A DNA stretch of 64,000 bases from Shigella phage Sfk20. This document shows positions 10,305 to 42,578 of the stretch, in pieces (the stretch's first letter is position 1; each line of letters begins with the position of its first letter). Under the pieces are notes generated by a model that saw only the letters and a list, made by a program, of their open reading frames with translations, was not told the origin of the DNA and searched no databases. Location: sequence record MW341595; one strand, given 5' to 3'. A program made the position numbers and the translations under genes.

Positions 10305-10340
10305 GTTAATAATACCACAGTTTGAACTTGTTGTAAACAA
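10305..10340 (-). promoter_or_regulatory. T4-type early (sigma70) promoter
   Basis: Minus-strand GTTTAC -35 with TATTAT-like -10 about 18 nt downstream and A/T-rich UP region; upstream 30 bp near-identical to elements at 42241 and 42571. Confidence 0.5.
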
Positions 10341-10411
10341 CTTTGTGAAAATTATTTTAGGGAATGATAAGAAGGGAACGATAGTTAGAATGGTAATATA
10401 CAGAATGTGAG

Positions 10412-10433
10412 AAAGAAAGGCCCAGAGGGCCCA
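10412..10433 (-). terminator. rho-independent terminator after nrdH
   Basis: GGGCCC-UCU-GGGCC hairpin followed by UUUCUUUCU. Confidence 0.6.
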
Positions 10434-10435
10434 TC

Positions 10436-10744
10436 TTAGTCTTCTATGATATCTCTATCATATCCAAGTGAAATGAGAGTTTCTTTGAAGTGTTTAATGT
10501 TCTTTTGTCTAGAATCATTGATGAAAATGACTGGATAACGAATGTTAAGAGATGTGAATCCAGCGCGTTTAGCAAGAGATACAATCAGTGGACGATCATA
10601 CTCAATCTTACCATTATTTGTAAGAACTTTATAGAAAGTAAAAGGAGCATTGAGCTCCTTTAGAAGTTTTGTAACTGATTGACATCCAGGACAACGACCT
10701 ACTTCATCTGGAATTCCATAGACTTCAATCTTGTTCTGTTTCAC
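10436..10744 (-). CDS. nrdH: glutaredoxin-like protein (NrdH position)
   Basis: 102 aa with CPGC redox motif, upstream of nrdG/nrdD operon end. Confidence 0.7.
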   Translation of the reverse strand: MKQNKIEVYGIPDEVGRCPGCQSVTKLLKELNAPFTFYKVLTNNGKIEYDRPLIVSLAKRAGFTSLNIRYPVIFINDSRQKNIKHFKETLISLGYDRDIIED

Positions 10745-10746
10745 AA

Positions 10747-10959
10747 CTATTCCTTACTAAGAGCAGAATTCAGCTTATTAGTAATTTTATCCAGACGCTC
10801 ATTGAACTCGCTAGAAGACAGTCCTTTTTCTGGAGAAATCAAACTAATCACGAAAAATATAGCAATAAAAGGAATAAGGAAAATAGCTCCAACTGCCATA
10901 AACAGAAAGAATGTTACAGTTGTAAGAAAATCAGCTAAACCTTTGCGAAATTTATACAT
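10747..10959 (-). CDS. hypothetical small membrane protein
   Basis: 70 aa, long hydrophobic segment TVTFFLFMAVGAIFLIPFIAIFFVISLI. Confidence 0.5.
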   Translation of the reverse strand: MYKFRKGLADFLTTVTFFLFMAVGAIFLIPFIAIFFVISLISPEKGLSSSEFNERLDKITNKLNSALSKE

Positions 10960-11074
10960 ATTTTACCCTTAATTGATTAACCAAGCATTGATAAGCACTA
11001 AACTATATTGCGAATAAAATTCTGGACCAAAATGAAAAATCATATCATTTATAGTGTCCATAATATAATTCAAT

Positions 11075-11545
11075 TTAATCATGTTTCCACACCCCATCGG
11101 TATTTGACCAAAGTCGCTGATTATCTGATCCTCGCCACAGCTTTTTAGTCGGAAGATTTTTCTCATACTTCCCATCAATAATAACATCAACATATTTAAG
11201 CATTTCTAGTTGTTTAATATCTTCAAATTTATATCCTGTCCACAACCAAATGCTTTTATTGGGATAAAGATTTTTTACTGTTTGAACCACAGAGTGAACA
11301 ACATCTCGGTTATCAGGATAGAGAGGGTCTCCTCCAGTTATAGTTAATCCTTCTATATAATCGTTATTCAAACATTCAATTAATTGTTCCAGTGTTTCAC
11401 CAGTGAATGGAACGCCATTTCTAGCATTCCATGTTGATTTATTATAACACCCTTCGCATTTATGCAAACAGCCTGTGACGAAAAGAACGACCCTGCATCC
11501 AGGGCCATTCACAAAATCGCATGGATAAAATCTATCATAATTCAT
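11075..11545 (-). CDS. nrdG: anaerobic ribonucleotide reductase activating protein NrdG (radical SAM)
   Basis: 156 aa; CLHKCEGC (Cx3Cx2C) radical-SAM cluster motif. Confidence 0.9.
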   Translation of the reverse strand: MNYDRFYPCDFVNGPGCRVVLFVTGCLHKCEGCYNKSTWNARNGVPFTGETLEQLIECLNNDYIEGLTITGGDPLYPDNRDVVHSVVQTVKNLYPNKSIWLWTGYKFEDIKQLEMLKYVDVIIDGKYEKNLPTKKLWRGSDNQRLWSNTDGVWKHD

Positions 11546-13359
11546 TGGTGTTTAACCCTATGCATGATTTCTTTATTTTTGCCGAGATTAAATCCGCGTT
11601 CGTTCGGATTTCCTAAATAACCGCAAGTTCTTCTTATTGTGTTCATCTTTTTAGGATCAGTTTCTCCACAAATAGAACAAACAAACCCGTTTTCAGTAGG
11701 AGTCATTTCATGTGTACTTCCGCATGTAAAACACTTATCTACTGGCATATTAACGCCAAAATAATCTAAATGCTGTGCAGCATAATCCCATACAGCCTCA
11801 AGACCTTTTAGGTTATTTTTCATATCAGGAAGTTCAACATAAGAAATGTGACCACCTGTCGCAATGAAATGATATGGAGCTTCGCGGGAAATCTTTTCAA
11901 ATGGAGTAATATTTTCTTCTACTGAAACATGGAAACTATTAGTGTACCAGCCTTTATCAGTAACATCCTTTACACTTCCATATTTTTCAGTATCAAGTTT
12001 ACAGAAGCGATAGCACAGGTTTTCAGCAGGTGTAGAATACAAACTAAAAGCAAAACCGGTTCTTTCAGTCCACTGCTTAAGACGAGCATTCATTTTAGTT
12101 AAAATTTCCTGTCCAATATCACGACCGACAAGAATATTCAATTCGTGAATACCAATGTATCCCAAAGACACTGAACTTCTACCGTTTTTAAATAACTCAA
12201 TTATGTCGTCATCAGGTTTAAGACGAACCCCGAATGCACCTTCTTGGTAAAGAATAGGAGCAACAGTCGCTTTAACTCCTTTTAAAGAATTAATTCTACA
12301 CATCAAAGCTTCAAAGCATAAATCCATTCGCTCATTGAACAATTCGGCAAATTTTTGTTCATTGAACTGTGTTCCAATATAAGAATCTAACGCAATGCGA
12401 GGAAGATTCAGTGTTACAACACCAAGATTATTACGTCCATCAAGAATTTCATTACCAGTCGAATCTTTCCATACGCTTAAGAAACTACGGCAACCCATTG
12501 GAGAAACAGGAATAGATGAACCAGTGATAGCTTTATTGTTCTTAGCTGAAATAATATCAGGATACATTCTTTTGCTTGCACACTCTAGAGCAAGCTGCTT
12601 AATATCATAGTTCGGATCATCTTTATAAAGATTAACACCTTCTTCAACGAACATAACAAGCTTAGGGAAAATAGGAGTTATCCCATCGCGACCAAGACCT
12701 TTAATACGATTTTTCAGAATTGCTTTCTGAATCATTCGTTCAGTCCAGTCAGTTCCCGTACCAAATGTAATTGTTACAAAAGGCGTTTGTCCGTTTGAAC
12801 TAAAAAGAGTATTTACTTCATATTCATAAGCTTGGAATGCATCGTATACGTCTTTTTCTGTTTTAGATTGAGCATAATTCAACGCATCAGCGATTTGCCA
12901 TTTTTCTGCGTCCTCAATATGTTTTGCATAGGTGCGTTTAACATAAGGAGAAAGTACTTTATCTACATTCGCAAAAGTCGTTCCACCATATTGGTGAGAA
13001 GCAACCTGTGCAGTAATTTGTGCCATAATTGCAGTAGCAACGCCGATTGATTTAGGAGTTTCAATCTGTGCATTACCGAGCTTAAATCCGTTTTCAAGCA
13101 TTCCTTTTAAATCTACTAAACAGCAATTAGTAAATGGAAGAGCAGGGGAATAATCAATATCATGGAAATGGATAATTCCGCTTTCATGCGCTTTCATAAT
13201 AAAAGACGGGACCATATTTTTGGCAATGTGTTTAGACACAATACCAGCCATAAGGTCCCGTTGAGTTGGAAAAACACGAGAATCTTTATTAGCATTCTCG
13301 TTCAAAAGGTCTTTATTAGTTTTATGAATCAATCCTTCAATTTCTTTTTCAATTGTCAT
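11542..13359 (-). CDS. nrdD: anaerobic ribonucleoside-triphosphate reductase NrdD (class III, glycyl radical)
   Basis: 605 aa uninterrupted ORF; C-terminal CxxC...CxxC zinc site and glycyl-radical motif RRTCGYLG. Confidence 0.93.
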   Translation of the reverse strand: MTIEKEIEGLIHKTNKDLLNENANKDSRVFPTQRDLMAGIVSKHIAKNMVPSFIMKAHESGIIHFHDIDYSPALPFTNCCLVDLKGMLENGFKLGNAQIETPKSIGVATAIMAQITAQVASHQYGGTTFANVDKVLSPYVKRTYAKHIEDAEKWQIADALNYAQSKTEKDVYDAFQAYEYEVNTLFSSNGQTPFVTITFGTGTDWTERMIQKAILKNRIKGLGRDGITPIFPKLVMFVEEGVNLYKDDPNYDIKQLALECASKRMYPDIISAKNNKAITGSSIPVSPMGCRSFLSVWKDSTGNEILDGRNNLGVVTLNLPRIALDSYIGTQFNEQKFAELFNERMDLCFEALMCRINSLKGVKATVAPILYQEGAFGVRLKPDDDIIELFKNGRSSVSLGYIGIHELNILVGRDIGQEILTKMNARLKQWTERTGFAFSLYSTPAENLCYRFCKLDTEKYGSVKDVTDKGWYTNSFHVSVEENITPFEKISREAPYHFIATGGHISYVELPDMKNNLKGLEAVWDYAAQHLDYFGVNMPVDKCFTCGSTHEMTPTENGFVCSICGETDPKKMNTIRRTCGYLGNPNERGFNLGKNKEIMHRVKHQ

Positions 13360-13829
13360 TTTAAACTCTTTCTAAGCTGCTTCTTAAATGAAGCTATTAA
13401 TTGTGTTTTAGTGTCAGATTCATTATATTCAAATCCTCTTTGAAGCATCTCAGCCATCATTTCCTCTTTTCCTAAACGAGAAAATTCCTTTGATTTATCT
13501 CCAACGAAGTTAGGGTGAATATTATTTTGGGTGTAATCGGATTTTAAATAAGTAAGTAAATTTTCTAACCATTCAAGATAATCAACGCCTTGTCCCTTTA
13601 AGCCAGAACGATTAAATTTGTGCTTCATTTGACCTTCCGCTGCATTGCAAAGATTACAGAGCAATCCACGCACCTTTCCTGCTTTTGGTCCATTTAATTC
13701 ATGGTCATGGTCAAGGTGATTAGCTTGAACATCAGGATTTAGTTCTCGTTGGCAAATTAAGCATTTACCATTTTGTGCATTATAAAATTTTTGTTTTTCT
13801 TCTTTGTATAATTTGCCAGTCAATAACAT
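13356..13829 (-). CDS. 49: endonuclease VII (Holliday junction resolvase) gp49
   Basis: 157 aa; matches recalled T4 endo VII including zinc-binding CLICQ...CNLCN and HLDHDH motif. Confidence 0.93.
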   Translation of the reverse strand: MLLTGKLYKEEKQKFYNAQNGKCLICQRELNPDVQANHLDHDHELNGPKAGKVRGLLCNLCNAAEGQMKHKFNRSGLKGQGVDYLEWLENLLTYLKSDYTQNNIHPNFVGDKSKEFSRLGKEEMMAEMLQRGFEYNESDTKTQLIASFKKQLRKSLK

Positions 13830-13870
13830 AATAAAACCCTTACCTTGAATAGATAAGGGTATTTATTATT
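13830..13870 (-). promoter_or_regulatory. hairpin covering the gene 49 translation initiation region
   Basis: ACCCUUA...UAAGGGU inverted repeat (13837-13862) immediately upstream of the gene 49 ATG; AATAAATA late-promoter-like octamer overlaps it. Confidence 0.4.
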
Positions 13871-13871
13871 T

Positions 13872-14048
13872 TCAAGTATTGTAAAACATTCGATGCAATC
13901 GCTTATATTGCCGAATCATCTTTTTAGTAGGACGAGAATAAGTTCCTACACAAGTGGTCATATTAGAGTCGGTATGACTTCCTTTAATAAAAAGTTTCCA
14001 AACCTTACCACCATTTAACTTTTCAGTATAAATTAATTCGGTTTTCAT
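13872..14048 (-). CDS. hypothetical small protein (58 aa, below ORF-track cutoff)
   Basis: ATG overlaps upstream stop (TAATG); translated by eye as MKTELIYTEKLNGGKVWKLFIKGSHTDSNMTTCVGTYSRPTKKMIRQYKRLHRMFYNT. Confidence 0.3.
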   Translation of the reverse strand: MKTELIYTEKLNGGKVWKLFIKGSHTDSNMTTCVGTYSRPTKKMIRQYKRLHRMFYNT

Positions 14049-14512
14049 TAAAACGCTCGGTCAGAAAAAGAATTTTGAGTTTCAAGCCATTCAATATATT
14101 CTGCCGCAGCTTGCATCAAATTTCCTTCATAACCATCGTTATTTTCTTGTGCAGCTAATTTAGCTAATGCGTATGAAATACGTTCACCTTGAAAAGCGGC
14201 TTCAGGTTTATGAATAACTTGATCAACTCGTTCTACGACCTCTTCAATTTCGCCATTTTCTACTGATTCAGTATTCCATAAGCACCAATAGGCAGTTGGC
14301 TTATCGTAGATGTTAATAATCTTTCCACCAGAAAGTTCAATTTCAATAATTCCAGTATCAGGTTCTATATCATCTTCACATTCTTTTACAAGTTCACGAA
14401 CTTTAAAGACAGTACCTGCACCAAGTTCCGGCCAGTAATTACACAGCTCTTTATCAGCACGATTAATTTTAAACCACTTATCTACTGCAATCATATCCCA
14501 TCTCCATATCAA
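14048..14512 (-). CDS. hypothetical protein (in the position of T4 pin, protease inhibitor)
   Basis: 154 aa acidic ORF between nrdC side and gene 49; identity by position only. Confidence 0.45.
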   Translation of the reverse strand: MIWRWDMIAVDKWFKINRADKELCNYWPELGAGTVFKVRELVKECEDDIEPDTGIIEIELSGGKIINIYDKPTAYWCLWNTESVENGEIEEVVERVDQVIHKPEAAFQGERISYALAKLAAQENNDGYEGNLMQAAAEYIEWLETQNSFSDRAF

Positions 14513-14617
14513 TTAAGTCGTTTATCGTTGGTTCATTATATACTGTTTCTTCATCAGTGTAAACCGGTTCTTCCGGCTCTGGCTCTACAGTTTCCCATCT
14601 AGCCGCCCACCAAGGTT

Positions 14618-14938
14618 TTATAGCGTAATCCATTCTCGTACTGTCTGAGTTACTACACGTTCACGGGGCTCGACTAGTTCAACAGTCGGAACTGCATAAT
14701 ACCAGTCAGAATGGTAAGAACCTGAGCGAGTTTCATTTACTGAAACATGTACATTGTGTTTTGGACTAAAATAAACACACTGGCGATATTGGCATTTACC
14801 ATCTTGTACCCAATCTTCTATTTCGATAGGTTTAAGATAATCCGAAAAATCGAAATCATAATTTTCTGAAAATGCATCATGGTCTTCGATGATTTCACTC
14901 AGAACTGCATCAACATCTAATTTATTTTCAATATTCAT
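14618..14938 (-). CDS. hypothetical protein
   Basis: 106 aa ORF. Confidence 0.5.
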   Translation of the reverse strand: MNIENKLDVDAVLSEIIEDHDAFSENYDFDFSDYLKPIEIEDWVQDGKCQYRQCVYFSPKHNVHVSVNETRSGSYHSDWYYAVPTVELVEPRERVVTQTVREWITL

Positions 14939-14948
14939 TTTTCACCAA

Positions 14949-15158
14949 TTAATTTCGCAATTTATTAAGTTCTTCATAATCAATCCAGGATTCTAGTCCT
15001 GATGGCAAATCAGATTCAATTTCCCAAAGAAGTTCTTCAATTTTCTGAAGACGATCCAGTTCTTCAGCTGGAATAGTAACCATTGATGGAGCTCTTGATA
15101 CACTAATATCGTAAATCATATTTACCCCAGTTTGACCATACAATCGCCATATTTCCAT
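14949..15158 (-). CDS. hypothetical protein
   Basis: 69 aa ORF. Confidence 0.45.
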   Translation of the reverse strand: MEIWRLYGQTGVNMIYDISVSRAPSMVTIPAEELDRLQKIEELLWEIESDLPSGLESWIDYEELNKLRN

Positions 15159-15337
15159 TTAGAAATAGACTTTTCACCATTAGAATAATAAACTTCGAGT
15201 TTAGCGCGGCCATTTTTAATTTGAATAACCTTTGCTGTCATCAAAGTTCCATATCCATAATAAACTGCAACCTCATCACCTACATATACCGCGCTTCCGC
15301 GGTAGTCATGGATATAATCAGTTCTTTCGAGCATCAT
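15122..15337 (-). CDS. hypothetical protein
   Basis: 71 aa ORF. Confidence 0.45.
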   Translation of the reverse strand: MMLERTDYIHDYRGSAVYVGDEVAVYYGYGTLMTAKVIQIKNGRAKLEVYYSNGEKSISKWKYGDCMVKLG

Positions 15338-15597
15338 TTAAAGTATTCCCGCAATTGATCAAATCCACCAATATGACTTCCATCAGGAGCAAATACTTGT
15401 GGCATTGTCAAACCAATTTGAGTATCACGACCTAGTTTCGTCAGAAGCTCAGCGATTTTCTCATCATCAAAAACACCTTTTTCCGGCATAATATTGATAA
15501 ATTCAAACGGTTGTTTCTTAACAGTCAAAAGACGTTTTGCATTATCGCAATACACACATTTGTGGATGTTGCTATCATAACCATATACTTTAAACAT
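15334..15597 (-). CDS. nrdC: thioredoxin/glutaredoxin NrdC
   Basis: 87 aa; CVYC active site; matches recalled T4 thioredoxin. Confidence 0.85.
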   Translation of the reverse strand: MFKVYGYDSNIHKCVYCDNAKRLLTVKKQPFEFINIMPEKGVFDDEKIAELLTKLGRDTQIGLTMPQVFAPDGSHIGGFDQLREYFK

Positions 15598-15598
15598 A

Positions 15599-15856
15599 TT
15601 ATTCCTTAATTCCTAGTACTTGTTTAAAAGTCTCGTCGTAATCAAGACTTTGGCCCGTTTGTTCTTTATGTTTGTATATAATATCACTTACTTCTGATAG
15701 CATATTTTTATATGAACGAGTTAAAGCAGATTTAAGCACGCTGTATCTATCAGGAAATTTACCGTGTTCATTATAATACGCTATTGCTAATTCACGGACT
15801 GCCTTTTCAGCAATCTCCATATATTCTTTACGCTTGGTCATTTTCTTCTCGGTCAA
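15599..15856 (-). CDS. hypothetical protein
   Basis: 85 aa ORF. Confidence 0.5.
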
Positions 15857-16145
15857 ATCGGTGTTTGCAATGACGGCATTTATAACGAAGATTACTAGTC
15901 TGCCAATGGACTAATTGAACCTGTTCAGTACCGCATTCAGGACAATTAGGAACGTTTTTAGAAGCCCTTTCGCGACGTTCAACCATAGTCATAATAGCAT
16001 CCCAGGCTGGAGGTTTAAAATCTAAATCATCACAACCATGAATCTTTCCACGCATTTCCAGATCGTCTTCTTCACCATCCATAATAATTTTAATTAGACT
16101 GGAATTACTTGAAGCTGCAATGTCTTCTAATAGACGCTTTTTCAT
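15828..16145 (-). CDS. hypothetical zinc-ribbon protein
   Basis: 105 aa; CPECG...CRHCKH four-Cys motif. Confidence 0.5.
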
Positions 16146-17071
16146 TTCAATACCTCAATGGCATTACGTAAACCATTTGCTTTTGCATTAAGAGCTTTTA
16201 ACAATTTGGTGTGTTCTGCAATTTGGGCTTCAACTTCAATCAAACGAGCATTGAGATATTCGCGTTCTTCGCTCAGGTTATCAACCTTTTCTACTTTAGG
16301 TTCTTTTACAACTGGCTTATACGTATTAGGGTTCTTCAGTTTAATTAGAATGCGTGAGCTGTATAACATTGAACCATTATCTTCGGTTTCATCATACATT
16401 TCCACTACGTCCATGATTTTTAACATCATGCGGAGTTTATAAGACAACGAACGAATAGTTTTGTTGTGCTTATTAATTTCTCTAGAGTTCATGGTGCCGA
16501 GATTACGTGAGTAATAATAAGGAACCTGGATATTAATTAACACTGATGAACCACCTGACTTGTGTGTTACTTCATCAGCAATAACCCAATCCTTAACATG
16601 AACTGTATTTGTACGGTCATCGCCTGCGGTAAATAGTTTGCGAGCATGCTTAAAAAGCATATTCACTTGGGTATTGAATTGACAAGCAAATTTATCAGCA
16701 AATTTAGTTTCAGGAATGGTAGATAACCAATCAGCTAAATGGGTCTTTTTAACATCGTTAACAATAGTAAATTCAACCAAATCGGTTATAGATGTCGCAG
16801 ATTTAATGAAGCTCGGCTTCATAAAGTTTTTAATGTTATCGCGAGCTACAGTAGAAGATAACATACGAGAACGTTTAAACCATTCAAGCAAATTGCCTAA
16901 CGAATGAGAATAAGCGTTTTGAGTATCTTTACAGATATGATTTTCCTGGCCAACATATTGAAGGAAATCACGAAGAATATTATTGATTACTGCTCTGTGT
17001 CCGATCTGATAATTACGGTGTTTAGTAATAAGACTGTCAAAATAATCAATATAATGTTTACGAGTTTTCAT
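16142..17071 (-). CDS. hypothetical protein with C-terminal coiled coil
   Basis: 309 aa; last ~45 residues heptad-like ([42 protein letters not shown]). Confidence 0.55.
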   Translation of the reverse strand: MKTRKHYIDYFDSLITKHRNYQIGHRAVINNILRDFLQYVGQENHICKDTQNAYSHSLGNLLEWFKRSRMLSSTVARDNIKNFMKPSFIKSATSITDLVEFTIVNDVKKTHLADWLSTIPETKFADKFACQFNTQVNMLFKHARKLFTAGDDRTNTVHVKDWVIADEVTHKSGGSSVLINIQVPYYYSRNLGTMNSREINKHNKTIRSLSYKLRMMLKIMDVVEMYDETEDNGSMLYSSRILIKLKNPNTYKPVVKEPKVEKVDNLSEEREYLNARLIEVEAQIAEHTKLLKALNAKANGLRNAIEVLK

Positions 17072-17123
17072 GTTCTTCTCACTTGGTTAATGATTTATAC
17101 TCCGAGCCATCCTTGGCTTTAAA

Positions 17124-18125
17124 TTACTTAATTAATTGTAAAGCTTGTTCAAGACGATCCAGGCGATTAACAGATTCTTCCCAAATCCTTTTAGCCTGCT
17201 CATATTCTTTCTGCGCTTTATTAGAAATTTCTAGAACTTCCTTATAAGCTTTTTCTAATGCAATAACTTCTGGACGAATTTCTACCGGTTCAGGTGAATC
17301 ATCAAGATTATCCATTAGTTCCTCAAGGGTAGTTTCTTCTTTAGGAGTATTCACAATTTCTTCACATTTTTGTTGGTAAATTTCTTTATCAGTCGGTGAG
17401 TACGCACATTTCACTTCACGAAGGCTAATTATAATTTTATATCCTTCCCAACCACACATATTTTTGAAAGGATATGTATGAATACTTTTTACAGTTTCCA
17501 TACAGCCCAAAGCCGCCTCTAATTGATAAGTTATAGTGCTAGCAATTGAGAAAAATTTATTAATATTCTTTTGGTTAGCGTTTGGTGTAAAAAATCCATA
17601 ATTCACAAAAATAGCTACTTTATTTTTATCAAGCTCATTTTCTTTTACGATAATCATATCAGAAGCCAAAGGATGAATTTGACGATAATCGCCATAACAT
17701 AATTTAGAAGCTGATTTTAGAATTTGTCCTTTGAAAAGTCTGAAATTACTAATCCACCGACGAGTAAAAATATTCTCAGGGTCTTCTTTATTATTAAGAT
17801 GATAAGAATTAACATCACCGAACCAATTATATCCTACTACATCTTTAGTTCGTTTAATTTCTTTCCCAAATTTACTAAGAATATCTCTGTTGACTAAGTA
17901 TGAAAGAAGACGAGAACCTTTAAAGGTTTCCTTAATGTCATCTTTATATGTACGACTAGAAATTTCACAAACTTCATAAATAAATTTGTCGGAAGAAACA
18001 ATACTTGCACTAGTATTATTGATCCATTGATTGATAATAGAAATCACACTATTCTGACTAGACATAGGTTTAACTTTATCATCAATAACGCTATTGAACG
18101 ATTTGATATATTCGTTACGAGTCAT
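17124..18125 (-). CDS. hypothetical protein with C-terminal coiled coil
   Basis: ATG at 18123-18125 behind GAGGAG RBS (MTRNEY...); track ORF extends into the promoter; C-terminal heptad segment. Confidence 0.55.
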   Translation of the reverse strand: MTRNEYIKSFNSVIDDKVKPMSSQNSVISIINQWINNTSASIVSSDKFIYEVCEISSRTYKDDIKETFKGSRLLSYLVNRDILSKFGKEIKRTKDVVGYNWFGDVNSYHLNNKEDPENIFTRRWISNFRLFKGQILKSASKLCYGDYRQIHPLASDMIIVKENELDKNKVAIFVNYGFFTPNANQKNINKFFSIASTITYQLEAALGCMETVKSIHTYPFKNMCGWEGYKIIISLREVKCAYSPTDKEIYQQKCEEIVNTPKEETTLEELMDNLDDSPEPVEIRPEVIALEKAYKEVLEISNKAQKEYEQAKRIWEESVNRLDRLEQALQLIK

Positions 18126-18151
18126 ATTAATCTCCTCAGTAGAAAGTAAGA

Positions 18152-18185
18152 ACATTATACCACATCCTTGTGGCAAAGTAAACTA
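18152..18185 (-). promoter_or_regulatory. T4-type early (sigma70) promoter
   Basis: GTTTAC - 18 nt - TATAAT then GAGGAG RBS and ATG at 18125. Confidence 0.65.
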
Positions 18186-19205
18186 GTTCAGTGCATTTAG
18201 TGCATTGTTCAGTTTAGAACGTTGCTTTGTCAGATTTTGAACCCTTGACTGAGCTTGTTCTAACACCTTTTCAGCTTCTAGCACTTCATTGGTCGCTTTA
18301 ACGAGTTCATCATCTACTGCCTTAAGAGACTTCTCAATCGCGTCAGCGTGCCATTTTTCTACAGGTTTAAAATTTGAATTTTCAGTAGGAAGAAAACTCA
18401 CTTTATTAAGTTTACATGCATCTATATTGCTTGAGCTATACATCCAAAATTTAGGATCGTTTGATGAGTAATTGGATAAATTTAAGTTATCTTGCACTTC
18501 CTGCTTTTTCTCTTGCGGGACTTCGTCCTTTCTCAAAAAATCGTATTTAAATGAAACGATCATATCAAGTTCATATGTTGTTGTGTCTAATTTAAATCGC
18601 TCAAAACGAGGTAAAATCTTAGACTGAACAGCGGCAACAACATTCATATACTTAAATGCTTCTGTCAACTGCGATTTAAGGCATTCGCAAATTGAAAGAG
18701 AATTTTTTGTATTAGGTTTAAAGCTAATTCGCGCAGTTCTGTTATTTTCTTTTAATGGTCTTACTTCCATCTGAAGAGTATAACCATCAAATTTCAGGTT
18801 CTTTAAGTTAATGTCAGAACCTTTTAATCGACTAGCAGTCGACAAAATTTGCTTTAATTGTCTACGGAACAGAGCAATAAATCTCCATTCAATACGATAA
18901 TGATTTGGATTAAAAAATCCAGATGATAAATCGACCTTACTTTGACCAACACCTTGAACAAATAGAGGATTTTTATAATCAATAGTTTTACAGAAATTGG
19001 TGAGTTGCTCACGAGCCGTCATTTGTGTAATATACCCCGCTTTACTAAAATTACTCACCCATTCACTGCTATTTAGATATTTAAAGTGATGAATAGCACG
19101 ATTAACTTTATCAGGGTCTAAATTATTTTCGCACAAAAATGTCATAACATTACGAGTATCGCTGGCAGTACGAACCATATCTTCAATTTGAGAACGAGTT
19201 TTCAT
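18183..19205 (-). CDS. hypothetical protein with C-terminal coiled coil
   Basis: 340 aa; C-terminal heptad segment (VLEAEKVLEQAQSRVQNLTKQRSKLNNALNALN). Confidence 0.55.
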   Translation of the reverse strand: MKTRSQIEDMVRTASDTRNVMTFLCENNLDPDKVNRAIHHFKYLNSSEWVSNFSKAGYITQMTAREQLTNFCKTIDYKNPLFVQGVGQSKVDLSSGFFNPNHYRIEWRFIALFRRQLKQILSTASRLKGSDINLKNLKFDGYTLQMEVRPLKENNRTARISFKPNTKNSLSICECLKSQLTEAFKYMNVVAAVQSKILPRFERFKLDTTTYELDMIVSFKYDFLRKDEVPQEKKQEVQDNLNLSNYSSNDPKFWMYSSSNIDACKLNKVSFLPTENSNFKPVEKWHADAIEKSLKAVDDELVKATNEVLEAEKVLEQAQSRVQNLTKQRSKLNNALNALN

Positions 19206-19213
19206 GGTATTCC

Positions 19214-20513: not shown

Positions 20514-20568
20514 AATAATCTCAATTAAAAGGGCTTAGAACCATTATACCATCCTTGGTATAAAGCGG

Positions 20569-33129: not shown

Positions 33130-33138
33130 GTGTTTCCT

Positions 33139-33555
33139 TTAAATGTAAATAGTTTTACCGTAGTATTTATACCAGTGTGGCTTCATTAAAATTTTTTCAT
33201 CGAGTCGTTGTTGACTCAACTTAATAGCTGATTTGCATGGATTATAATCATTTTTCCATTCTGCTGGAATATCGCTGATGTCAGGAACTTCAGTATCTTT
33301 TATATTAAACCCACGTTTTAAGCATTCTGTTATAATGTCTGATTGACGCTTTCGCAAAAATTCTAACTTATCATAAAAGAACGTAACATGACCAGAGCCT
33401 AAAATAAACTCGGAAGATATTTTAAAATCTTTAACTCGCTTACCATTTGCAACATGTTTACGAACTATACCAAAAACACGCGGCAGTTCACGGTATTCTG
33501 CGATTAAATGTTGATCAGCAAGTTCAGATACTAAAGTCAAATTAATACGAGTCAT
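33139..33555 (-). CDS. denV: endonuclease V (pyrimidine dimer DNA glycosylase)
   Basis: 138 aa; N-terminus [29 protein letters not shown] matches recalled T4 DenV. Confidence 0.93.
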
Positions 33556-33578
33556 TTTATCCCTCCAAGTAACTGTGA

Positions 33579-33612
33579 ATATACTATCACAGTTCTAGAA
33601 GAAAGTAAACAA
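33579..33612 (-). promoter_or_regulatory. T4-type early promoter upstream of denV
   Basis: GTTTAC - 18 nt - TAGTAT on minus strand. Confidence 0.5.
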
Positions 33613-33614
33613 CT

Positions 33615-34145
<531 letters not shown>

Positions 34146-36434: not shown

Positions 36435-37028
36435 TTATTTCAGAGAATTAATGTATTCCTGAACATCGGCAGAGGTAGTTTCAACCCCAGAAATATTACC
36501 GTTAAAGGTTTCAACTCGAGCAAGGGTATCTTCAATATCAACCTTAGTCAGTGCTGCAATTTCAACTACATCATCGGCAGTACTAATTCCAAGGGCATTT
36601 GCTGCACGAGTTTCACGGATATATTCCAATTTAACCGCAAGTTCTTGACGAGCATCATCTAACTCAACTACTTTCTTGGCGATTTCAATTCGCATTTCAG
36701 CATAACCGTCAGCCTTAGTAGTCAACTGCTCAGCTGTTCGACGATATAGTAAACCGAGTTTAGCATGCATTGTTACATCTTGACCTTCGGAAAGAAGTTT
36801 ACGAATTTCACGCTCTTTTGATTCGGCCTGTCGATTCTTTTCGATAACAAGTTCACGAATACGTTTTTCTTCATTAATAGATTTAACAGAAGCAGTTTTT
36901 AGATCTTTAATTTTATCAAGTAGTTTTGCTGCTGCAGCAGTATACTGTTCTTCAACAGATAGATTTTTAGCCATAGCAGAACCAAGTTTAGTGCGAATAA
37001 ACTCAACAATTTTCTTCAGTGTGTTCAT
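36435..37028 (-). CDS. hypothetical coiled-coil protein
   Basis: 197 aa, largely heptad-like charged sequence; UUCG hairpin after stop. Confidence 0.5.
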
Positions 37029-37085
37029 AGTATTTCCTTAGGTTGATACAATTAGATAATATCACGTTTTTAATAGATTGTAAAC

Positions 37086-37421
37086 TTATTCTTCGTCTAT
37101 CTCATCGATAAAGACGTCAATGGCCTCGATAACGGCATCATTGATAGCCAATAAAGTAAAATCATCGTCAGTGCCTTTAGAAGATTCTAAAGCATTGATA
37201 TATGCTTGGTTAGCAAGTTTCCAAGCCTTTTTAAAATAAGGAGCTTCATCATCAGGGCCAACGAAACGTACACCTTCAAAGATACGGTTAGCATAATCCA
37301 ATACCCACTGTACAGGCATGTTTTGAGAACGTTCGTTAAACTCTTTAAATTCCTTAGATTCAAAAAGCTCTTCGGGATAATAATTTCGATTACAAAAAGC
37401 TTTACTAAAGTTACGTTTCAT
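37086..37421 (-). CDS. hypothetical protein
   Basis: 111 aa acidic ORF. Confidence 0.5.
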   Translation of the reverse strand: MKRNFSKAFCNRNYYPEELFESKEFKEFNERSQNMPVQWVLDYANRIFEGVRFVGPDDEAPYFKKAWKLANQAYINALESSKGTDDDFTLLAINDAVIEAIDVFIDEIDEE

Positions 37422-37476
37422 AATGTTCTCCTCAAGTTACAGGCTCATAATATCTCAATCATGAGCCTGTGTAAAC

Positions 37477-37740
37477 TTATTTCATATTATTGAAATATTC
37501 TTCTGCGATTTCGTCGTTATCGTGGTAAACTTTAGAAGACAGTTTAACATAACCTTCAGCAGTGAACATGTTAATCACAACCTTTACAGTATACCACTGA
37601 CCGTCTTCATTACCCATTACTGCATAGGTTTCAAACATCGGATGGTCAGGACCGATAACTTTAATATCATTCACTGTACGACCGAAATCTTCTGAAACAC
37701 ATTTCATAAAGAAGTTGAACAGTTCGCCGTAATTATCCAT
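37477..37740 (-). CDS. hypothetical protein
   Basis: Start ATG 37738-37740 behind GGAG RBS (MDNYGELFN...); longer track ORF overlaps promoter/leader element. Confidence 0.45.
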   Translation of the reverse strand: MDNYGELFNFFMKCVSEDFGRTVNDIKVIGPDHPMFETYAVMGNEDGQWYTVKVVINMFTAEGYVKLSSKVYHDNDEIAEEYFNNMK

Positions 37741-37782
37741 TTCATTCTCCAAGTTGTTTTTCTGTATCAGTAGTTGATAGTT

Positions 37783-37816
37783 GTATAGTACCATGGAAGA
37801 ACAGGGATGTAAATAG
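37783..37816 (-). promoter_or_regulatory. T4-type early promoter with conserved leader
   Basis: ATTTAC - 18 nt - TACTAT followed by ACAACTATCAACTAC leader. Confidence 0.5.
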
Positions 37817-37946
37817 TTTTGTGAAAAAATTTTTAAAAATTTTTAGGGAATTCTAGGGCAGGGAGGGGCAATTAAAAGATAGGATAATATATTATAAAGG
37901 GTATAAACTAAATGATGCCTAGAGAGGTCCAGAAAGGCCTAGATAC

Positions 37947-37972
37947 CAAAAAGCCCTATCATTTAGATAGGG
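37947..37972 (-). terminator. rho-independent terminator after CTS gene 37981-38544
   Basis: CCCUAUC-UAAAU-GAUAGGG followed by CUUUUU. Confidence 0.65.
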
Positions 37973-37980
37973 ATTTAAAA

Positions 37981-38544
37981 TTATTTGCCTAGTTTAGTTA
38001 TTATAGCTTCGGCAGCAGCTTTTAGCTTAGATGCGGTGTTAATACGATTTTTAATTTCAGTATACGCATCGCCAAGAACATCAAGGCTATCAGAATAAAC
38101 ACTTACACTATTGCGTTCGCTATTTGAAATAGAACCTTTAGTTTTACGATCAAAATCGGTGTACACGTCTTGAAGATCGCGGGCTGCCTTCTTTGCATCA
38201 TCCAATGCATCAAGAGCTTTATTCAAAGCATTAACGTATTTTTTAGTGTCGAACATATTCTTAGAAATTTTAACAGGTGCACGTTCAGGAGTAGCTAATA
38301 CAGATTTAGGAACCTGAGCGCCAGATGCCAATTTCTTAGAAATTTTGAAAAATGCTTTATTGAATTTATTTTCTTGACTCATTGTAAAAGAACTATTATC
38401 GATGTTGTACATTTCAATAGCTTTAGCTTTCCACTTAAGAAAATCGCCGCGGTCTTTTGGGTCCAATTGGAAGAATACTTTAGTAAGATCTGCTTCAGAT
38501 GGTAATTTTGCTGCTTCGGTTAAAAATTCGGCATAGGTTTTCAT
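37981..38544 (-). CDS. candidate internal (capsid-packaged) protein with capsid targeting sequence
   Basis: N-terminus MKTYAEFLTEA (CTS consensus with LTE-A cleavage site); own terminator hairpin downstream. Confidence 0.6.
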   Translation of the reverse strand: MKTYAEFLTEAAKLPSEADLTKVFFQLDPKDRGDFLKWKAKAIEMYNIDNSSFTMSQENKFNKAFFKISKKLASGAQVPKSVLATPERAPVKISKNMFDTKKYVNALNKALDALDDAKKAARDLQDVYTDFDRKTKGSISNSERNSVSVYSDSLDVLGDAYTEIKNRINTASKLKAAAEAIITKLGK

Positions 38545-38634
38545 TTAAAATCCTTGAAATAATTTATCGGTTGGTTATTAATTATTTATTACTTTGTTAC
38601 TATCCGTAGCAGCATTCTCTATGTGATTCAAACT

Positions 38635-38662
38635 AAAAAAGCCCCAACCTTTCAGTCGGGGC
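38635..38662 (-). terminator. rho-independent terminator after CTS gene 38671-39144
   Basis: GCCCCGAC-UGAAAGG-UUGGGGC followed by UUUUUU. Confidence 0.7.
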
Positions 38663-38670
38663 TAAGAATG

Positions 38671-39144
38671 TTATTTGATTTGTTTAGCAGACCAAATGCG
38701 GTCTTTAATAATTTTTTGAATGTCTTCAACATACTCAAGAGAGTGAACATGTGGATTATCTTTGAAACTATAAGCACGGGCTAACTTTTGGCCTTCGGTT
38801 TTGATTACTAAAAGCTCTTTAAGGATAGCTTCATATTTAGAGATAATTCCTTTAACAATATTTTTTTCTTGTGCAACTTTAGGATCTGCTTTAGGAGCAG
38901 GTTTACCCGAAGCCTTTGCAAAAGCAGCGCCAGTAGCAACTAGACTTTTCCAGGCCATACTAACTGCATTTCCCGTAAATCCTTCTGCTTTCATGTCGCG
39001 AGCAAATTGGAATCGTGATTCGTCAGAAGCATCTTTATAGGAATATTTACCCGCTGCAATGGCTGCTTTTGCGACAGCTTGAATTTCGGTGCTAGATGCT
39101 TCATTTAACACCGCTTCATTTAAAAATTGAGCATATGATTTCAT
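38671..39144 (-). CDS. candidate internal (capsid-packaged) protein with capsid targeting sequence
   Basis: N-terminus MKSYAQFLNEA (CTS-like with LNE-A cleavage site); TATAAATA late promoter upstream and terminator hairpin downstream. Confidence 0.6.
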   Translation of the reverse strand: MKSYAQFLNEAVLNEASSTEIQAVAKAAIAAGKYSYKDASDESRFQFARDMKAEGFTGNAVSMAWKSLVATGAAFAKASGKPAPKADPKVAQEKNIVKGIISKYEAILKELLVIKTEGQKLARAYSFKDNPHVHSLEYVEDIQKIIKDRIWSAKQIK

Positions 39145-39184
39145 CTTATTTCCTGTTTTAATTCGTGGATTTAATATACTACTA

Positions 39185-39192
39185 TATTTATA
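39185..39192 (-). promoter_or_regulatory. late promoter (TATAAATA) for CTS gene 38671-39144
   Basis: Plus strand reads TATTTATA = minus-strand TATAAATA, about 40 nt upstream of ATG. Confidence 0.6.
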
Positions 39193-39194
39193 CT

Positions 39195-39221
39195 AAAAAG
39201 CCCCAACCTTTCGGTCGGGGC
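39195..39221 (-). terminator. rho-independent terminator ending the tRNA/small-RNA transcription unit
   Basis: GCCCCGACC-GAAAGG-UUGGGGC followed by UUUUU; near-duplicate of the 38635-38662 hairpin. Confidence 0.7.
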
Positions 39222-39239
39222 TAAGCCTTGCGGCAACCT

Positions 39240-39895: not shown

Positions 39896-39971
39896 TGGTC
39901 GAGGCAGTAGGGATCGAACCTACGACCTAGGACTTAGAAGGTCCTTGCTCTTCCTTCTGAGCTATGCCTCG
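39896..39971 (-). tRNA. tRNA-Arg (anticodon UCU)
   Basis: 76 nt cloverleaf; acceptor CGAGGCA/UGCCUCG, anticodon stem AGGAC/GUCCU, loop CUUCUAA, T-arm GUAGG-UUCGAUC-CCUAC, CCA encoded. Confidence 0.9.
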
Positions 39972-39975
39972 GATT

Positions 39976-40050
39976 TGGCGGACGTGATAGGATTCGAACC
40001 TATAACCAATCGCTTAACAGGCGATCGCTCTGCCATTGAGCTACACATCC
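39976..40050 (-). tRNA. tRNA-Asn (anticodon GUU)
   Basis: 75 nt; acceptor GGAUGUG/CACGUCC, D-arm GCUC-AAUGGCA-GAGC, anticodon stem AUCGC/GCGAU, loop CUGUUAA, T-arm AUAGG-UUCGAAU-CCUAU, CCA encoded. Confidence 0.88.
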
Positions 40051-40054
40051 AAAT

Positions 40055-40141
40055 TGGTGGGGAGTGATGGAGTCGAACCACCCGAGTCGCAATGACAATG
40101 GATTTACAGTCCACACCGCTACCTCTACGGGATAACTCCCC
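40055..40141 (-). tRNA. tRNA-Tyr (anticodon GUA), long variable arm
   Basis: 87 nt; acceptor GGGGAGU/ACUCCCC, anticodon stem-loop GUGGA-CUGUAAA-UCCAU, ~15 nt variable arm, T-arm GGUGG-UUCGACU-CCAUC, CCA encoded. Confidence 0.85.
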
Positions 40142-40150
40142 AAATTAATT

Positions 40151-40225
40151 TGGTGGCCCTGGGTGGAATTGAACCACCATCTGGCGATTATGAGTCGCTT
40201 GCTTGAACCTTCCAGCTACAGGGCC
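40151..40225 (-). tRNA. tRNA with anticodon CAU (Ile2/Met type; T4 tRNA-Ile equivalent)
   Basis: 75 nt; acceptor GGCCCUG/CAGGGCC, anticodon loop CUCAUAA, T-arm GGUGG-UUCAAUU-CCACC, CCA encoded. Confidence 0.85.
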
Positions 40226-40226
40226 T

Positions 40227-40302
40227 TGGTGCTGATTGACGGAATCGAACCGCCGACCTTCTCATTACAAGTGAGTTGCTCTACCTACTGAGCTAAATCA
40301 GC
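40227..40302 (-). tRNA. tRNA-Thr (anticodon UGU)
   Basis: 76 nt; acceptor GCUGAUU/AAUCAGC, D-arm GCUC-AGUAGGUA-GAGC, anticodon loop CUUGUAA, CCA encoded. Confidence 0.88.
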
Positions 40303-40307
40303 AAAAC

Positions 40308-40397
40308 TGGCGGAGGCGATAGGATTTGAACCTATGAGTCGCCGGAGCGACTGCCGGTTTTCAAGACCGGTGCATTAAACCACTCTGCCACGCCTCC
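40308..40397 (-). tRNA. tRNA-Ser (anticodon UGA), long variable arm
   Basis: 90 nt; acceptor GGAGGCG/CGCCUCC, anticodon stem-loop CCGGU-CUUGAAA-ACCGG, long variable arm, T-arm AUAGG-UUCAAAU-CCUAU, CCA encoded. Confidence 0.88.
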
Positions 40398-40399
40398 AG

Positions 40400-40473
40400 T
40401 CTCCATACAAGGATTTGAACCTTGGACCTCCTGATCCCAAATCAGGCGCTCTACCAAACTGAGCTACACGGAG
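40400..40473 (-). tRNA. tRNA-Pro (anticodon UGG)
   Basis: 74 nt; acceptor CUCCGUG/UAUGGAG (two G-U pairs), anticodon stem-loop CCUGA-UUUGGGA-UCAGG, T-arm CAAGG-UUCAAAU-CCUUG, CCA not encoded. Confidence 0.85.
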
Positions 40474-40483
40474 TAAATTAAAT

Positions 40484-40557
<74 letters not shown>

Positions 40558-40562
40558 AAATT

Positions 40563-40649
40563 TGGTGCGAGAAGTGGGACTCGAACCCACAAGGAAATCA
40601 TTCCGCAGCATTTTAAGTGCTGTGCCTTTACCAATTTGACCATTCTCGC
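40563..40649 (-). tRNA. tRNA-Leu (anticodon UAA), long variable arm
   Basis: 87 nt; acceptor GCGAGAA/UUCUCGC, anticodon stem-loop CAGCA-CUUAAAA-UGCUG, T-arm GUGGG-UUCGAGU-CCCAC, CCA encoded. Confidence 0.88.
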
Positions 40650-40650
40650 G

Positions 40651-40723
40651 CTGGGAATAAAGGACTCGAACCTTTGCATCCTGGAATCAAAATCCAGTGC
40701 CTTACCAACTTGGCTAATTCCCA
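40651..40723 (-). tRNA. tRNA-Gln (anticodon UUG)
   Basis: 73 nt; acceptor UGGGAAU/AUUCCCA, anticodon stem-loop CUGGA-UUUUGAU-UCCAG, T-arm AAAGG-UUCGAGU-CCUUU, CCA not encoded. Confidence 0.85.
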
Positions 40724-41334: not shown

Positions 41335-41624
41335 GCTGCATTAATGTAAGTATATTTAATACATTCAAGACCCAAAGGATTCTTGAAAATATCATATTCA
41401 AGAGGACCTTTTTCTGTTTCAATAAAGAAATCAAAATTTACTGTATTAAATGTACGGTCTTCCTTTACTAATTTAACTTGAGAAGATGAACGGCCAATGT
41501 AAACCTTTTCAACTTCAAAATATGTTAAAACGCCATAATCATCAATCAAGGCTTTAGCCGCGTCTTGATCATATTTATATCCATTTTCAATGGATGATAC
41601 TTTCGCATAAAGAATCATTATCAA
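41328..41624 (-). CDS. hypothetical protein
   Basis: 98 aa ORF. Confidence 0.45.
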   Translation of the reverse strand: MIMILYAKVSSIENGYKYDQDAAKALIDDYGVLTYFEVEKVYIGRSSSQVKLVKEDRTFNTVNFDFFIETEKGPLEYDIFKNPLGLECIKYTYINAAW

Positions 41625-42040
41625 CCTTCATCAACAATAGTGTGCGTATTGGCATTTACAATTTGCCACCAATCAAAGCGATTAGAACCATAATCTGGTT
41701 TGTTTTCATTTTCTTTGATAATGTCACGGAGTTCATCTTCGGTAGCGGCTTTCGCTATTAAATCAGCATATCCACCACGAGGATAATAATTATCACCTGC
41801 AAAAAGTAAAAAGTTTGGTTTAATGTTATTGAACTCTTCAAGAGTAATAACTTTTCCTGACGGTTGAACAATCTCTACATATTTATATCCCAATTTTTGA
41901 GCAGCATCTACTGCTTCAAGCAAAGTATCATGAGCCCATCCAATTTGACAACCTGGCTTTTCAGATGGATTAGCCTGATAATCCGCATACACTTTGTACA
42001 TTCTATTCACCTTTAGAAATTTTATCCATAACGATAGCAA
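41621..42040 (-). CDS. hypothetical protein
   Basis: 139 aa ORF; real start may be internal Met (MYKVYADYQ). Confidence 0.45.
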   Translation of the reverse strand: MLSLWIKFLKVNRMYKVYADYQANPSEKPGCQIGWAHDTLLEAVDAAQKLGYKYVEIVQPSGKVITLEEFNNIKPNFLLFAGDNYYPRGGYADLIAKAATEDELRDIIKENENKPDYGSNRFDWWQIVNANTHTIVDEG

Positions 42041-42188
42041 TTAAACCAATTAAAAATGCTACTACAAGTGAAAACACATTTTCTGCTATAGTCAATAATC
42101 CACATATAAATCCAACAAACATTGAAAAACTAAAAGCGGAAGCAGAAATTGCAATAGCAACATTTCGAATTAATTCACAACGTTTCAT
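42003..42188 (-). CDS. hypothetical small membrane protein
   Basis: 61 aa with two hydrophobic segments; GAGGAG RBS and early promoter upstream. Confidence 0.4.
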   Translation of the reverse strand: MKRCELIRNVAIAISASAFSFSMFVGFICGLLTIAENVFSLVVAFLIGLIAIVMDKISKGE

Positions 42189-42214
42189 TTTATTCTCCTC
42201 GGTAGTTGATAGGG

Positions 42215-42248
42215 TAATAGTATCACAACTAAAACCCTATGTAAACAA
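42215..42248 (-). promoter_or_regulatory. T4-type early promoter
   Basis: GTTTAC - 18 nt - TACTAT; GAGGAG RBS; upstream 30 bp identical to 42571 element. Confidence 0.6.
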
Positions 42249-42258
42249 CTTTGTGAAA

Positions 42259-42516
42259 TTATTTTAAATCTTCTAATCGTTTCTTCATCTTAGAACCATT
42301 TTTAGCAATTTCTCCTGCATCGGAGCATAATGCTAAAAGTGCTTTAACTTTAGTTTGGTCTCCTTTAAAAGATGAAGGATCGACTGCAGCAGCAAGTTCT
42401 TTAATACGAGAGAAAAGACGCTCAGCTTCAGCTAAAGCCATTCCAAGCTTTACTTCCATACCGTGAGAAGATTCAGTGATAGTGGTTTTTGTAGCAAACT
42501 CTTTGAAAGTTTTCAT
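42259..42516 (-). CDS. hypothetical protein with variant CTS-like N-terminus (occupies the T4 ipI locus)
   Basis: 85 aa; MKTFKEFATKTTITE-S resembles CTS with an I-x-E cleavage site at residue 15; early promoter upstream. Confidence 0.5.
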   Translation of the reverse strand: MKTFKEFATKTTITESSHGMEVKLGMALAEAERLFSRIKELAAAVDPSSFKGDQTKVKALLALCSDAGEIAKNGSKMKKRLEDLK

Positions 42517-42544
42517 TTTATTTTCCTAATTAATTTTGATGAGA

Positions 42545-42578
42545 TAATAGTATCACTACCTCATCAGCATGTAAACAA
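42545..42578 (-). promoter_or_regulatory. T4-type early promoter
   Basis: GTTTAC - 18 nt - TACTAT upstream of ORF 42259-42516. Confidence 0.6.

Follow-up and report, generated by a model that had tools for sequence, protein, structure and literature searches.

The window analysed here is a 64,000-nucleotide (nt) stretch of Shigella phage Sfk20 (record MW341595), and its region 10305–42578 is a minus-strand early region that carries the 55.x, nrdC.x and mobD.x genes, rI, tk, vs, regB, denV, e, the e.x genes, a tRNA cluster and ipI/57B. Short cassettes recur along this region, in each of which sequence of the phage T4 early-promoter type leads into the translation start of a small gene (Table 1; sites are named by the first position of their −35 element, except the nrdC.10 site, which is called 22570). 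A search with an 8-kb piece of the window gave 766 matches among phage records, nearly all from Tequatrovirus, with Escherichia phage Ec_MI-02 and Shigella phage pSs-1 as the top relatives (98.5–98.6% identity), and comparison with the whole of T4 (AF158101) revealed that the window is collinear with approximately 30.8–96 kb of that genome at 88–98% identity.

An earlier reading made from the letters alone (the sequence-only reading) had proposed at least ten promoters of the form GTTTAC–N18–TA(C/T)TAT in this region. As written, the pattern occurs seven times in the window, always on the minus strand and against 0.17 expected, with −35 elements at 10338, 21154, 26131, 37085, 37476, 42246 and 42576; the figure of at least ten holds once the −10 is loosened, as GTTTAC–N17–19–TAnnAT has 13 matches in the window, 12 of them on the minus strand, versus 0.87 expected. 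Thirteen window sites carry an exact GTTTAC, and a looser scan adds 37814 (−35 ATTTAC) and 25319 (−10 TATAGT). The recurring minus-strand motif is real and lies far above chance. In an unbiased repeat search of 36 kb, the three largest families of direct repeats consisted of the cassettes: family D3 coincides exactly with the five positions at which the sequence-only reading had placed a common leader, and family D1 is a 31-nt upstream block common to the 42576 and 42246 cassettes. By contrast, a scan with the generic sigma-70 consensus showed no enrichment over shuffled sequence (81 versus 78; 70 versus 68), which indicates that the signal resides in the T4-specific promoter form with its T4-specific −35.

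Alignment of 13 window sites with 35 T4 sites revealed A-tracts between −40 and −54, with A at −40 in 100% of the window sites (a UP-like A/T-rich region), an invariant G at −36 followed by TTTAC, and TGTG before the −10, with T at −15 (76%) and G at −14 (84%). A weaker consensus follows the −10 (C−2, T−1, A+1, T+2, C+3, A+4, A+5). Each site lies directly 5′ of an open reading frame (ORF), and at 12 of the 15 sites the −10 is 25–30 nt from the ATG and the predicted 5′ untranslated region is approximately 19–24 nt long. These features agree with the published description of T4 early promoters as UP/−35/TGn/−10 promoters with additional regions of consensus (Hinton 2010, PMC2988021) that carry TGTG(A/G)TA(C/T)(A/T)AT (bioRxiv 10.1101/2024.04.04.588121).

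All window sites pair one-to-one with T4 orthologues at the corresponding loci, and at least eight match −35/−10 signals annotated in the T4 GenBank records U76612 and L13089, three of them labelled 'early promoter'. In U76612, the entries 'terminator / −35 / −10, early promoter 57.9' and 'terminator / −35 / −10, early promoter 54.4' correspond to 26131 and 22570, 'early promoter 50.0' corresponds to 18183, and 21154 and 25319 are matched by the −35/−10 pairs that precede nrdC.8 and mobD.2. In L13089, the promoters of e.8, e.7 and e.6 correspond to 37814, 37476 and 37085, and an upstream stem-loop is annotated there as well. Both the architecture and the orthology thus bear out the earlier identification of these sites as early promoters.

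Table 1. Early promoter and translation-start cassettes in the window (positions in the 64,000-nt stretch).
Feature	Span	Strand	−35	−10	Leader	Shine–Dalgarno	ATG	Other element
nrdC.8-homologue early promoter cassette	21094–21184	minus	GTTTAC 21154–21149	TACTAT 21130–21125	ACAACTATCAACTAC 21124–21110	GGAGG 21109–21105	21096	
nrdC.10-homologue degraded cassette	22527–22595	minus		TGG+TACTAT 22572–22564	ACAACTATCAACTGA 22563–22549	RegB-type GGAGAATAAAA 22539–22529	22529	hairpin 22595–22572
mobD.5-homologue terminator and early promoter	26071–26164	minus	26131–26126	TACTAT 26107–26102	partial, ACAACTATCGG	GAGGAG	26073	terminator hairpin 26164–26147
e.8-homologue cassette	37738–37844	minus	ATTTAC 37814–37809	TACTAT 37790–37785	37784–37770	GGAGAATGAAA 37750–37740	37740	UP element AAAAATTTTTTCACAAAAC
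trna.4-homologue cassette	42186–42276	minus	42246–42241	TACTAT 42222–42217	variant, TACCCTATCAACTAC 42216–42202	RegB-type GGAGAATAAAA 42198–42188	42188	
ipI-type internal-protein gene promoter	42514–42606	minus	42576–42571	TACTAT 42552–42547			42516	
e.7- and e.6-homologue promoters	37026–37506	minus	37476; 37085	TATTAT 37452–37447; 37061–37056				
denV chimeric early promoter	33553–33640	minus	33610–33605	TAGTAT 33586–33581		GGAGGGATAAA	33555	
regB early promoter	30448–30537	minus	30507–30502	TATAAT 30483–30478		GGAGAATAACA 30460–30450	30450	
Five further early promoters	within 9806–25349 (the five short sites, not the entire span)	minus	25319 (mobD.2); 18183 (nrdC.4); 14564 (pin); 10338 (55.6); 9899 (55.4 homologue)					

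Our reading, to which we assign a probability of approximately 0.78, is that these sites are T4-like immediate-early promoters fused to translation-initiation regions, and that the conserved leader is the start-site region of the promoter sub-class with a TACTAT −10. The module would consist of an A/T-rich UP region, G−36 followed by TTTAC(A/T), a 17- or 18-nt spacer ending in TGn, TAnnAT, approximately 28 nt, and ATG; it would be read by the unmodified host sigma-70 RNA polymerase, with the translation-initiation region of one small early gene joined to each promoter. If the canonical spacing of 7 nt from the −10 applies, the predicted +1 is the A of ACAACT|A, and of 150 T4 start sites mapped by differential RNA sequencing 90 begin with A (bioRxiv 10.1101/2024.04.04.588121). 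The same spacing would leave the first six of the 15 leader bases untranscribed as the discriminator (−6 to −1), so that approximately the nine-base AUCAACUAC is predicted to appear in RNA. The core of the leader ACAACTATCAACTAC (CTATCAA, −2 to +5) fits the start-site consensus of the whole promoter family. The leader would therefore comprise the discriminator and the first nine transcribed bases rather than a separate RNA element, with a GGAG-type Shine–Dalgarno sequence next in line.

The sequence-only reading had five promoters followed by the same leader. Three full copies are present, two exact in all 22 nt (21110–21131 and 37770–37791) and one with two mismatches (22549–22570), where none would be expected; the remaining two are partial, as 26131 has only TACTATACAACTATC in common with the leader and the 42246 leader has four mismatches (TACTATtaccCTATCAACTAC). 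The ribosome-binding sites said to follow, GAGGAG or GGAGG, were likewise found in part: GGAGG at 21154 and GAGGAG at 26131 and 42246, but TTGGAGAAT at 22570 and 37814. The −10 together with the leader (21110–21130 and the other copies) can be read as three tandem 7-mers, TACTATA/CAACTAT/CAACTAC, and the AACTAT of the middle 7-mer has the A and T that are most important in a −10 hexamer.

Five T4 early promoters, all of them minus-strand, carry the 21-mer TACTATACAACTATCAACTAC without mismatch, namely those of ndd.6, motA, e.8, nrdC.8 and imm.1; the nrdC.10 promoter has a sixth copy that departs from it in the last two bases only, and partial copies precede about eight more genes, including motB, denV, trna.4, mobD.5, frd.3 and sp. 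Mean pairwise identity was compared block by block between the 14 T4 promoters of TACTAT type and the 21 with another −10. The 15 nt after the −10 reach 0.62 in the TACTAT type versus 0.33 in the others, and the UP region 0.55 versus 0.35, whereas the spacer is at background in the TACTAT type (0.35 versus 0.34). A query of 49 nt running from the −10 to the ATG matched 574 phage records, typically at 6–9 places per genome and essentially all in Tequatrovirus, with single copies outside in one Mosigvirus (at the e.8 orthologue) and one Gelderlandvirus. A scan of IMG/VR with a 19-mer yielded 26 copies, three of which (L008, L021 and L028) are chance matches in unrelated coding sequence. In the Gelderlandvirus, the Salmonella phage STML-198 (L006, 1190–1250), the −10, the leader and GGAGAATAAAAT stand directly after an ADP-ribosylase gene without any −35, and the related IMG/VR contig 2974573174 (L009) has a full cassette before the same ORF. 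The STML-198 site is a second, independent half-cassette.

One way to account for these repeats is that the similarity has no function and the leader is a residue of repeated copying or gene conversion among cassettes. Signs of copying are plain: two T4 loci have the spacer AAGCATAAAGCTTTATGG in common and others have AAGACTGTTCTTCC, several T4 promoter pairs share both the spacer and detail after the leader, with homology continuing into TGATACGGATTTGGAGAATAAAATGAAAA, and recombination junctions lie inside cassettes. Yet the conservation extends over the whole sub-class, and the leader is conserved while the spacers are at background, so that recent duplication of whole cassettes is by itself an insufficient explanation; moreover, the leader core fits the start-site consensus found across the promoter family as a whole. 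As an account of the leader, functionless copying is therefore unlikely. The reading we favour combines the two influences: the start region would be held constant by an optimum for initiation and promoter escape together with an unstructured 5′ end, and recombination among copies would reinforce it.

The same figures could be taken to mean that the block TGGTACTATACAACTATCAACTAC is a DNA site read beyond the standard contacts of sigma-70, by a phage or host factor or by Alt-modified polymerase, and that it regulates the sub-class, for example through selective stimulation by Alt or early shut-off. The identity of 0.62 over background-level spacers, the exact repetition in six T4 copies and the apparent make-up from three tandem 7-mers are in keeping with such a site, as are the reports that, among early promoters whose core elements are identical, Alt stimulates only some, and that the mechanism of shut-off is unexplained (reviews, including PMC2988021). 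No such factor is known, however; the block is largely confined to Tequatrovirus and so is not something that T4-type early transcription needs in general, and recombination among copies can homogenise a block that has no function. We regard this possibility as quite improbable, and give slightly less credence still to the narrower proposal that the −15 to +9 block is a distinct regulatory DNA element marking an immediate-early sub-class that in T4 includes motA and motB. If that were true, the block could determine the response to Alt-modified RNA polymerase or be the target of early-promoter shut-off. That a single promoter sub-class keeps an invariant start-site block while its spacers drift leaves a small chance of a regulatory role specific to that sub-class.

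The sequence-only reading had suggested that the leader might act as a translational enhancer or as an RNA-processing site; neither role is borne out by what was found. In its enhancer form, the proposal would be that the transcribed part AUCAACUAC, being free of G and unstructured, aids loading of the ribosome and S1 on 5′ untranslated regions of approximately 22 nt. Own-start transcripts are indeed predicted to be mostly near-unstructured (minimum free energy 0 to −3 kcal/mol in 12 of 13, and −8.3 at 9899) with the Shine–Dalgarno sequence mostly unpaired, two half-cassettes retain the leader and Shine–Dalgarno sequence without a −35, and extra 5′ sequence speeds the action of RegB and S1 non-specifically (Durand 2006, PMC1702504). 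But where the sequence after the −10 is unrelated, early promoters are predicted to give equally unstructured leaders, and the longest run of complementarity between the leader and Escherichia coli 16S rRNA is 5 nt, which 1000 of 1000 shuffles equalled or bettered, whereas the positive control, T7 epsilon, found its 9-nt target at 16S position 458. Six of the 15 leader bases are predicted to lie upstream of +1, the core is start-site consensus, and the block co-varies with the TACTAT type of the −10 in DNA, not with the type of Shine–Dalgarno sequence. A separate enhancer thus seems a poor prospect, and the start-site reading of the leader fits these results better.

Processing does take place on mRNAs of this class, and motA and motB, which belong to the leader family in T4, are classic good substrates of RegB (Durand 2006, PMC1702504). 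RegB, though, cleaves inside GGAG; the complete target, which depends on S1, is GGAGRAYARAA (GGAGAAUAAAA in T4), and deletion analysis found no need for specific information 5′ of GGAG (Durand 2006, PMC1702504). The leader contains no GGA and does not match the RegB 11-mer, and a segment of nine bases at the 5′ end leaves little to process, which makes it very improbable that the leader is itself a site for RegB or RNase E/G. The perfect RegB 11-mer GGAGAATAAAA instead coincides with the Shine–Dalgarno sequences of the 22570 and 42246 cassettes, and one-mismatch sites lie at the Shine–Dalgarno sequences of the 37814 cassette and of regB itself (Table 1); these 11-mers are predicted to be unpaired in own-start RNA. 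By sequence match, the processing site in the cassettes is the Shine–Dalgarno sequence with its A-rich tail, not the leader, and in the GGAGAATAAAA form it would double as the RegB/S1 cleavage site that inactivates early mRNAs. A search against Rfam returned ten tRNA genes and no family at the cassettes.

The cassettes were also said to resemble the mobile promoter stem-loop modules (PeSLs) of T4-type phages, and here the comparison is sound. In the T4/PST pair, PeSLs comprise an AT-rich stretch, TTTACW–N17–TAYWAT, a Shine–Dalgarno sequence, an ATG and a stem-loop, and they are concentrated in hyperplastic regions, with 'degraded' half-elements near indels (Comeau et al. 2014, PMC4122927). The window cassettes show the same anatomy, including the composite of an AT-rich stretch, early promoter, Shine–Dalgarno sequence and start codon within approximately 100 bp. 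The PeSL reading is correct and already published.

The stem-loops of PeSLs are most frequently located in the interval from the −35 to the −10 or across the −10 itself (Arbiol et al. 2010, PMC2839356). When the spacer of each promoter was paired with the region downstream of that promoter, a perfect stem of 7 bp or more was present for 46% of the window promoters and 35% of those of T4, whereas cross-pairs gave such stems in 4.5% and 2.7%, respectively (permutation p < 0.0005). Stems ATAGGGT/ACCCTAT and TGATGAG/CTCATCA span the −10 of the trna.4 cassette and of the 42576 promoter, classic terminator hairpins precede 26131 and 22570 (Table 1), and a third upstream hairpin (37972–37954) lies approximately 130 nt upstream of 37814, a site at which, as at 37085, 14564 and 10338, the spacer–downstream stem is weak or absent. 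Covariation of the −10-spanning stems among T4, T6, pSs-1, the window and IMG/VR fragments is mixed: pairing is kept by a relocated arm at the trna.4 promoter and by G–U-compatible changes at 25319, and the different inverted repeat at e.7 also speaks for the stems, but at 21154 the end of the stem shows every one of the four base combinations.

Six cassettes, with −35 elements at 21154, 30507, 33610, 37814, 18183 and 9899, show a further predicted fold, in which the promoter spacer pairs with the Shine–Dalgarno region in read-through RNA (minus-strand spans 21094–21154, 30448–30507, 33553–33610, 37738–37814, 18123–18183 and 9806–9899). At 21154, for instance, the spacer CTGTTCCTC is predicted to pair with GAGGAACAG. 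The predicted unpaired probability of the six Shine–Dalgarno sequences falls from 0.4–0.9 to approximately 0 in read-through RNA, and RNA starting at the cassette's own +1 would be without the 5′ arm of that hairpin; regB is among the cases.

Three concrete rearrangements at cassettes were found in the window. First, the body of the ipI gene is replaced by an unrelated allele, while the flanking 42576 and 42246 cassettes are approximately 98% identical to T4, and the right junction of the swap lies in the UP element of the next cassette. Second, ipIII and ipII are absent, and denV is driven by the T4 ipIII promoter (upstream sequence through +16) joined to a different Shine–Dalgarno sequence (GGAGGGATAAA). 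Third, at 22570 a deletion of 49 bp relative to T4, pSs-1 and T6 removes the T-run of the terminator, the UP element, the −35 and the spacer (at 22564–22595) and joins the upstream hairpin directly to ATGGTACTAT; this site, counted earlier among the five promoters, is thus not a full promoter. The intact form of the nrdC.10 promoter is present in T4, pSs-1, T6 and at least 431 records, and a 39-nt query across the junction had no match among 50,697 phage records, so the deletion may be confined to this genome or may be an error of assembly. The ORFs behind one and the same cassette differ in other contigs. Crossovers in PeSLs have been mapped between the −10 and the Shine–Dalgarno sequence or ATG (Arbiol et al. 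2010, PMC2839356). Because it recurs 6–9 times per Tequatrovirus genome, the module of approximately 110 bp would serve as a homology patch for gene swap, deletion and re-promotion, that is, for shuffling of the PeSL type.

Several observations weigh against the account given so far. The 21-nt −10-plus-leader block is shared by six T4 copies over spacers at background, where simple recent duplication predicts otherwise, and this pattern suggests some selection on the block beyond such duplication. The half-cassettes at window 22570 and in STML-198 both keep the −10, leader and Shine–Dalgarno sequence without a −35, so that the downstream half of the cassette may be of value independent of promoter function. 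By our own count, approximately 3–4 of approximately 24 breakpoint ends between the window and T4 lie in or at cassettes, versus approximately 1 expected; most of the indels either consist of homing-endonuclease genes or are situated elsewhere than at cassettes, and cassette shuffling is a minor part of the divergence. Finally, the +1 positions and promoter activity in this phage are predictions deduced from sequence and from T4.

Differences between the window and T4 are of two kinds, the absence of homing-endonuclease genes and an intron, and a handful of small replacements. The T4 elements mobB, mobC, the I-TevII intron, mobD and segB are absent from the window. The loci concerned are 7031–7056, 11522–11545, 12821–12824 and 23609–24572 (absence of mobB, mobC and the nrdD intron with I-TevII, and replacement of mobD), and approximately 960 bp of other sequence takes the place of mobD. 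The tRNA cluster (39896–40723) has ten genes (Arg, Asn, Tyr, Met, Thr, Ser, Pro, Gly, Leu and Gln) versus eight in T4, and segB is not inside it. The internal-protein/denV locus (32644–33640) is arranged unlike that of T4, ipIII and ipII being missing between e and denV, and past the downstream end of denV come approximately 620 bp without a T4 match, at the place where an internal virion protein is annotated in pSs-1.

With respect to T4, an insertion of 1.2 kb (37948–39225) contains two ORFs of 187 and 157 amino acids, whose N termini, MKTYAEFLTEA and MKSYAQFLNEA, we take to be the targeting signature of internal head proteins. Behind each ORF comes a terminator hairpin, the two being nearly alike (38666–38636 and 39225–39195, 97% identical), and hairpin copies bound the insertion. 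After the hairpin, at approximately 39190, stands TATAAATA, which resembles a T4 late promoter. At 44037–44066, upstream of the gene 1 homologue, a further pattern match has GTTTAA as its −35 and the MotA-box-like TGCTTCA before TATAAT, and is probably a middle rather than an early promoter.

As an outcome, 15 cassettes of promoter and translation start are now cleanly annotated in this phage. The finding is genuine but unremarkable: these are known T4-like strong early promoters with attached ribosome-binding sites, and little is added beyond the demonstration that the T4 early-promoter class and PeSL-like modularity can be recovered from raw sequence by a blind reader.

Among known systems, the RegB/S1 site is matched perfectly (GGAGAATAAAA) in two of the five cassettes and with one mismatch at 37814 and at the regB promoter 30507; it differs from the leader ACAACTATCAACTAC in consisting of the Shine–Dalgarno sequence and A-rich tail, and its consensus is fitted less well by the Shine–Dalgarno sequences of 21154 (GGAGGAACAGA) and 26131 (GGAGAACATCA). 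In T4 e, soc, 49 and I-TevI, a hairpin hides the ribosome-binding site in long transcripts and an internal promoter yields a translatable short RNA (PMC3014915). The six window cassettes predicted to sequester their Shine–Dalgarno sequence only in read-through RNA would be alike, but the promoters in the published examples are late or middle ones; in the window cases, which are predictions, an early promoter would lie inside the hairpin.

Downstream and initial-transcribed sequence affects strong phage promoters of the T5 N25 type, to which the cassettes may be likened, by analogy, in having a conserved segment across +1 at a very strong promoter. With PeSLs the cassettes have in common an AT-rich region, a sigma-70-type promoter, a Shine–Dalgarno sequence and ATG, an upstream or overlapping stem-loop, a location in plastic early regions and swaps with junctions inside the cassette. 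They differ in that most window-versus-T4 differences are not at cassettes, and in that mini-circle formation through recombination between cassettes, terminator activity and promoter strength were established by experiment, with inverse PCR and reporter assays, for RB49/phi1 (Arbiol et al. 2010, PMC2839356), whereas the window cassettes are predicted from sequence. The closest counterparts are the T4 early (Pe) promoters, which share the GTTTAC −35, the TGn-extended −10, the A/T-rich UP region, the minus-strand placement 5′ of small early ORFs and one-to-one orthology. Apart from the missing upstream half of 22570, ATTTAC for GTTTAC at 37814 and a denV chimera that T4 does not have, nothing of substance separates the window set from them.

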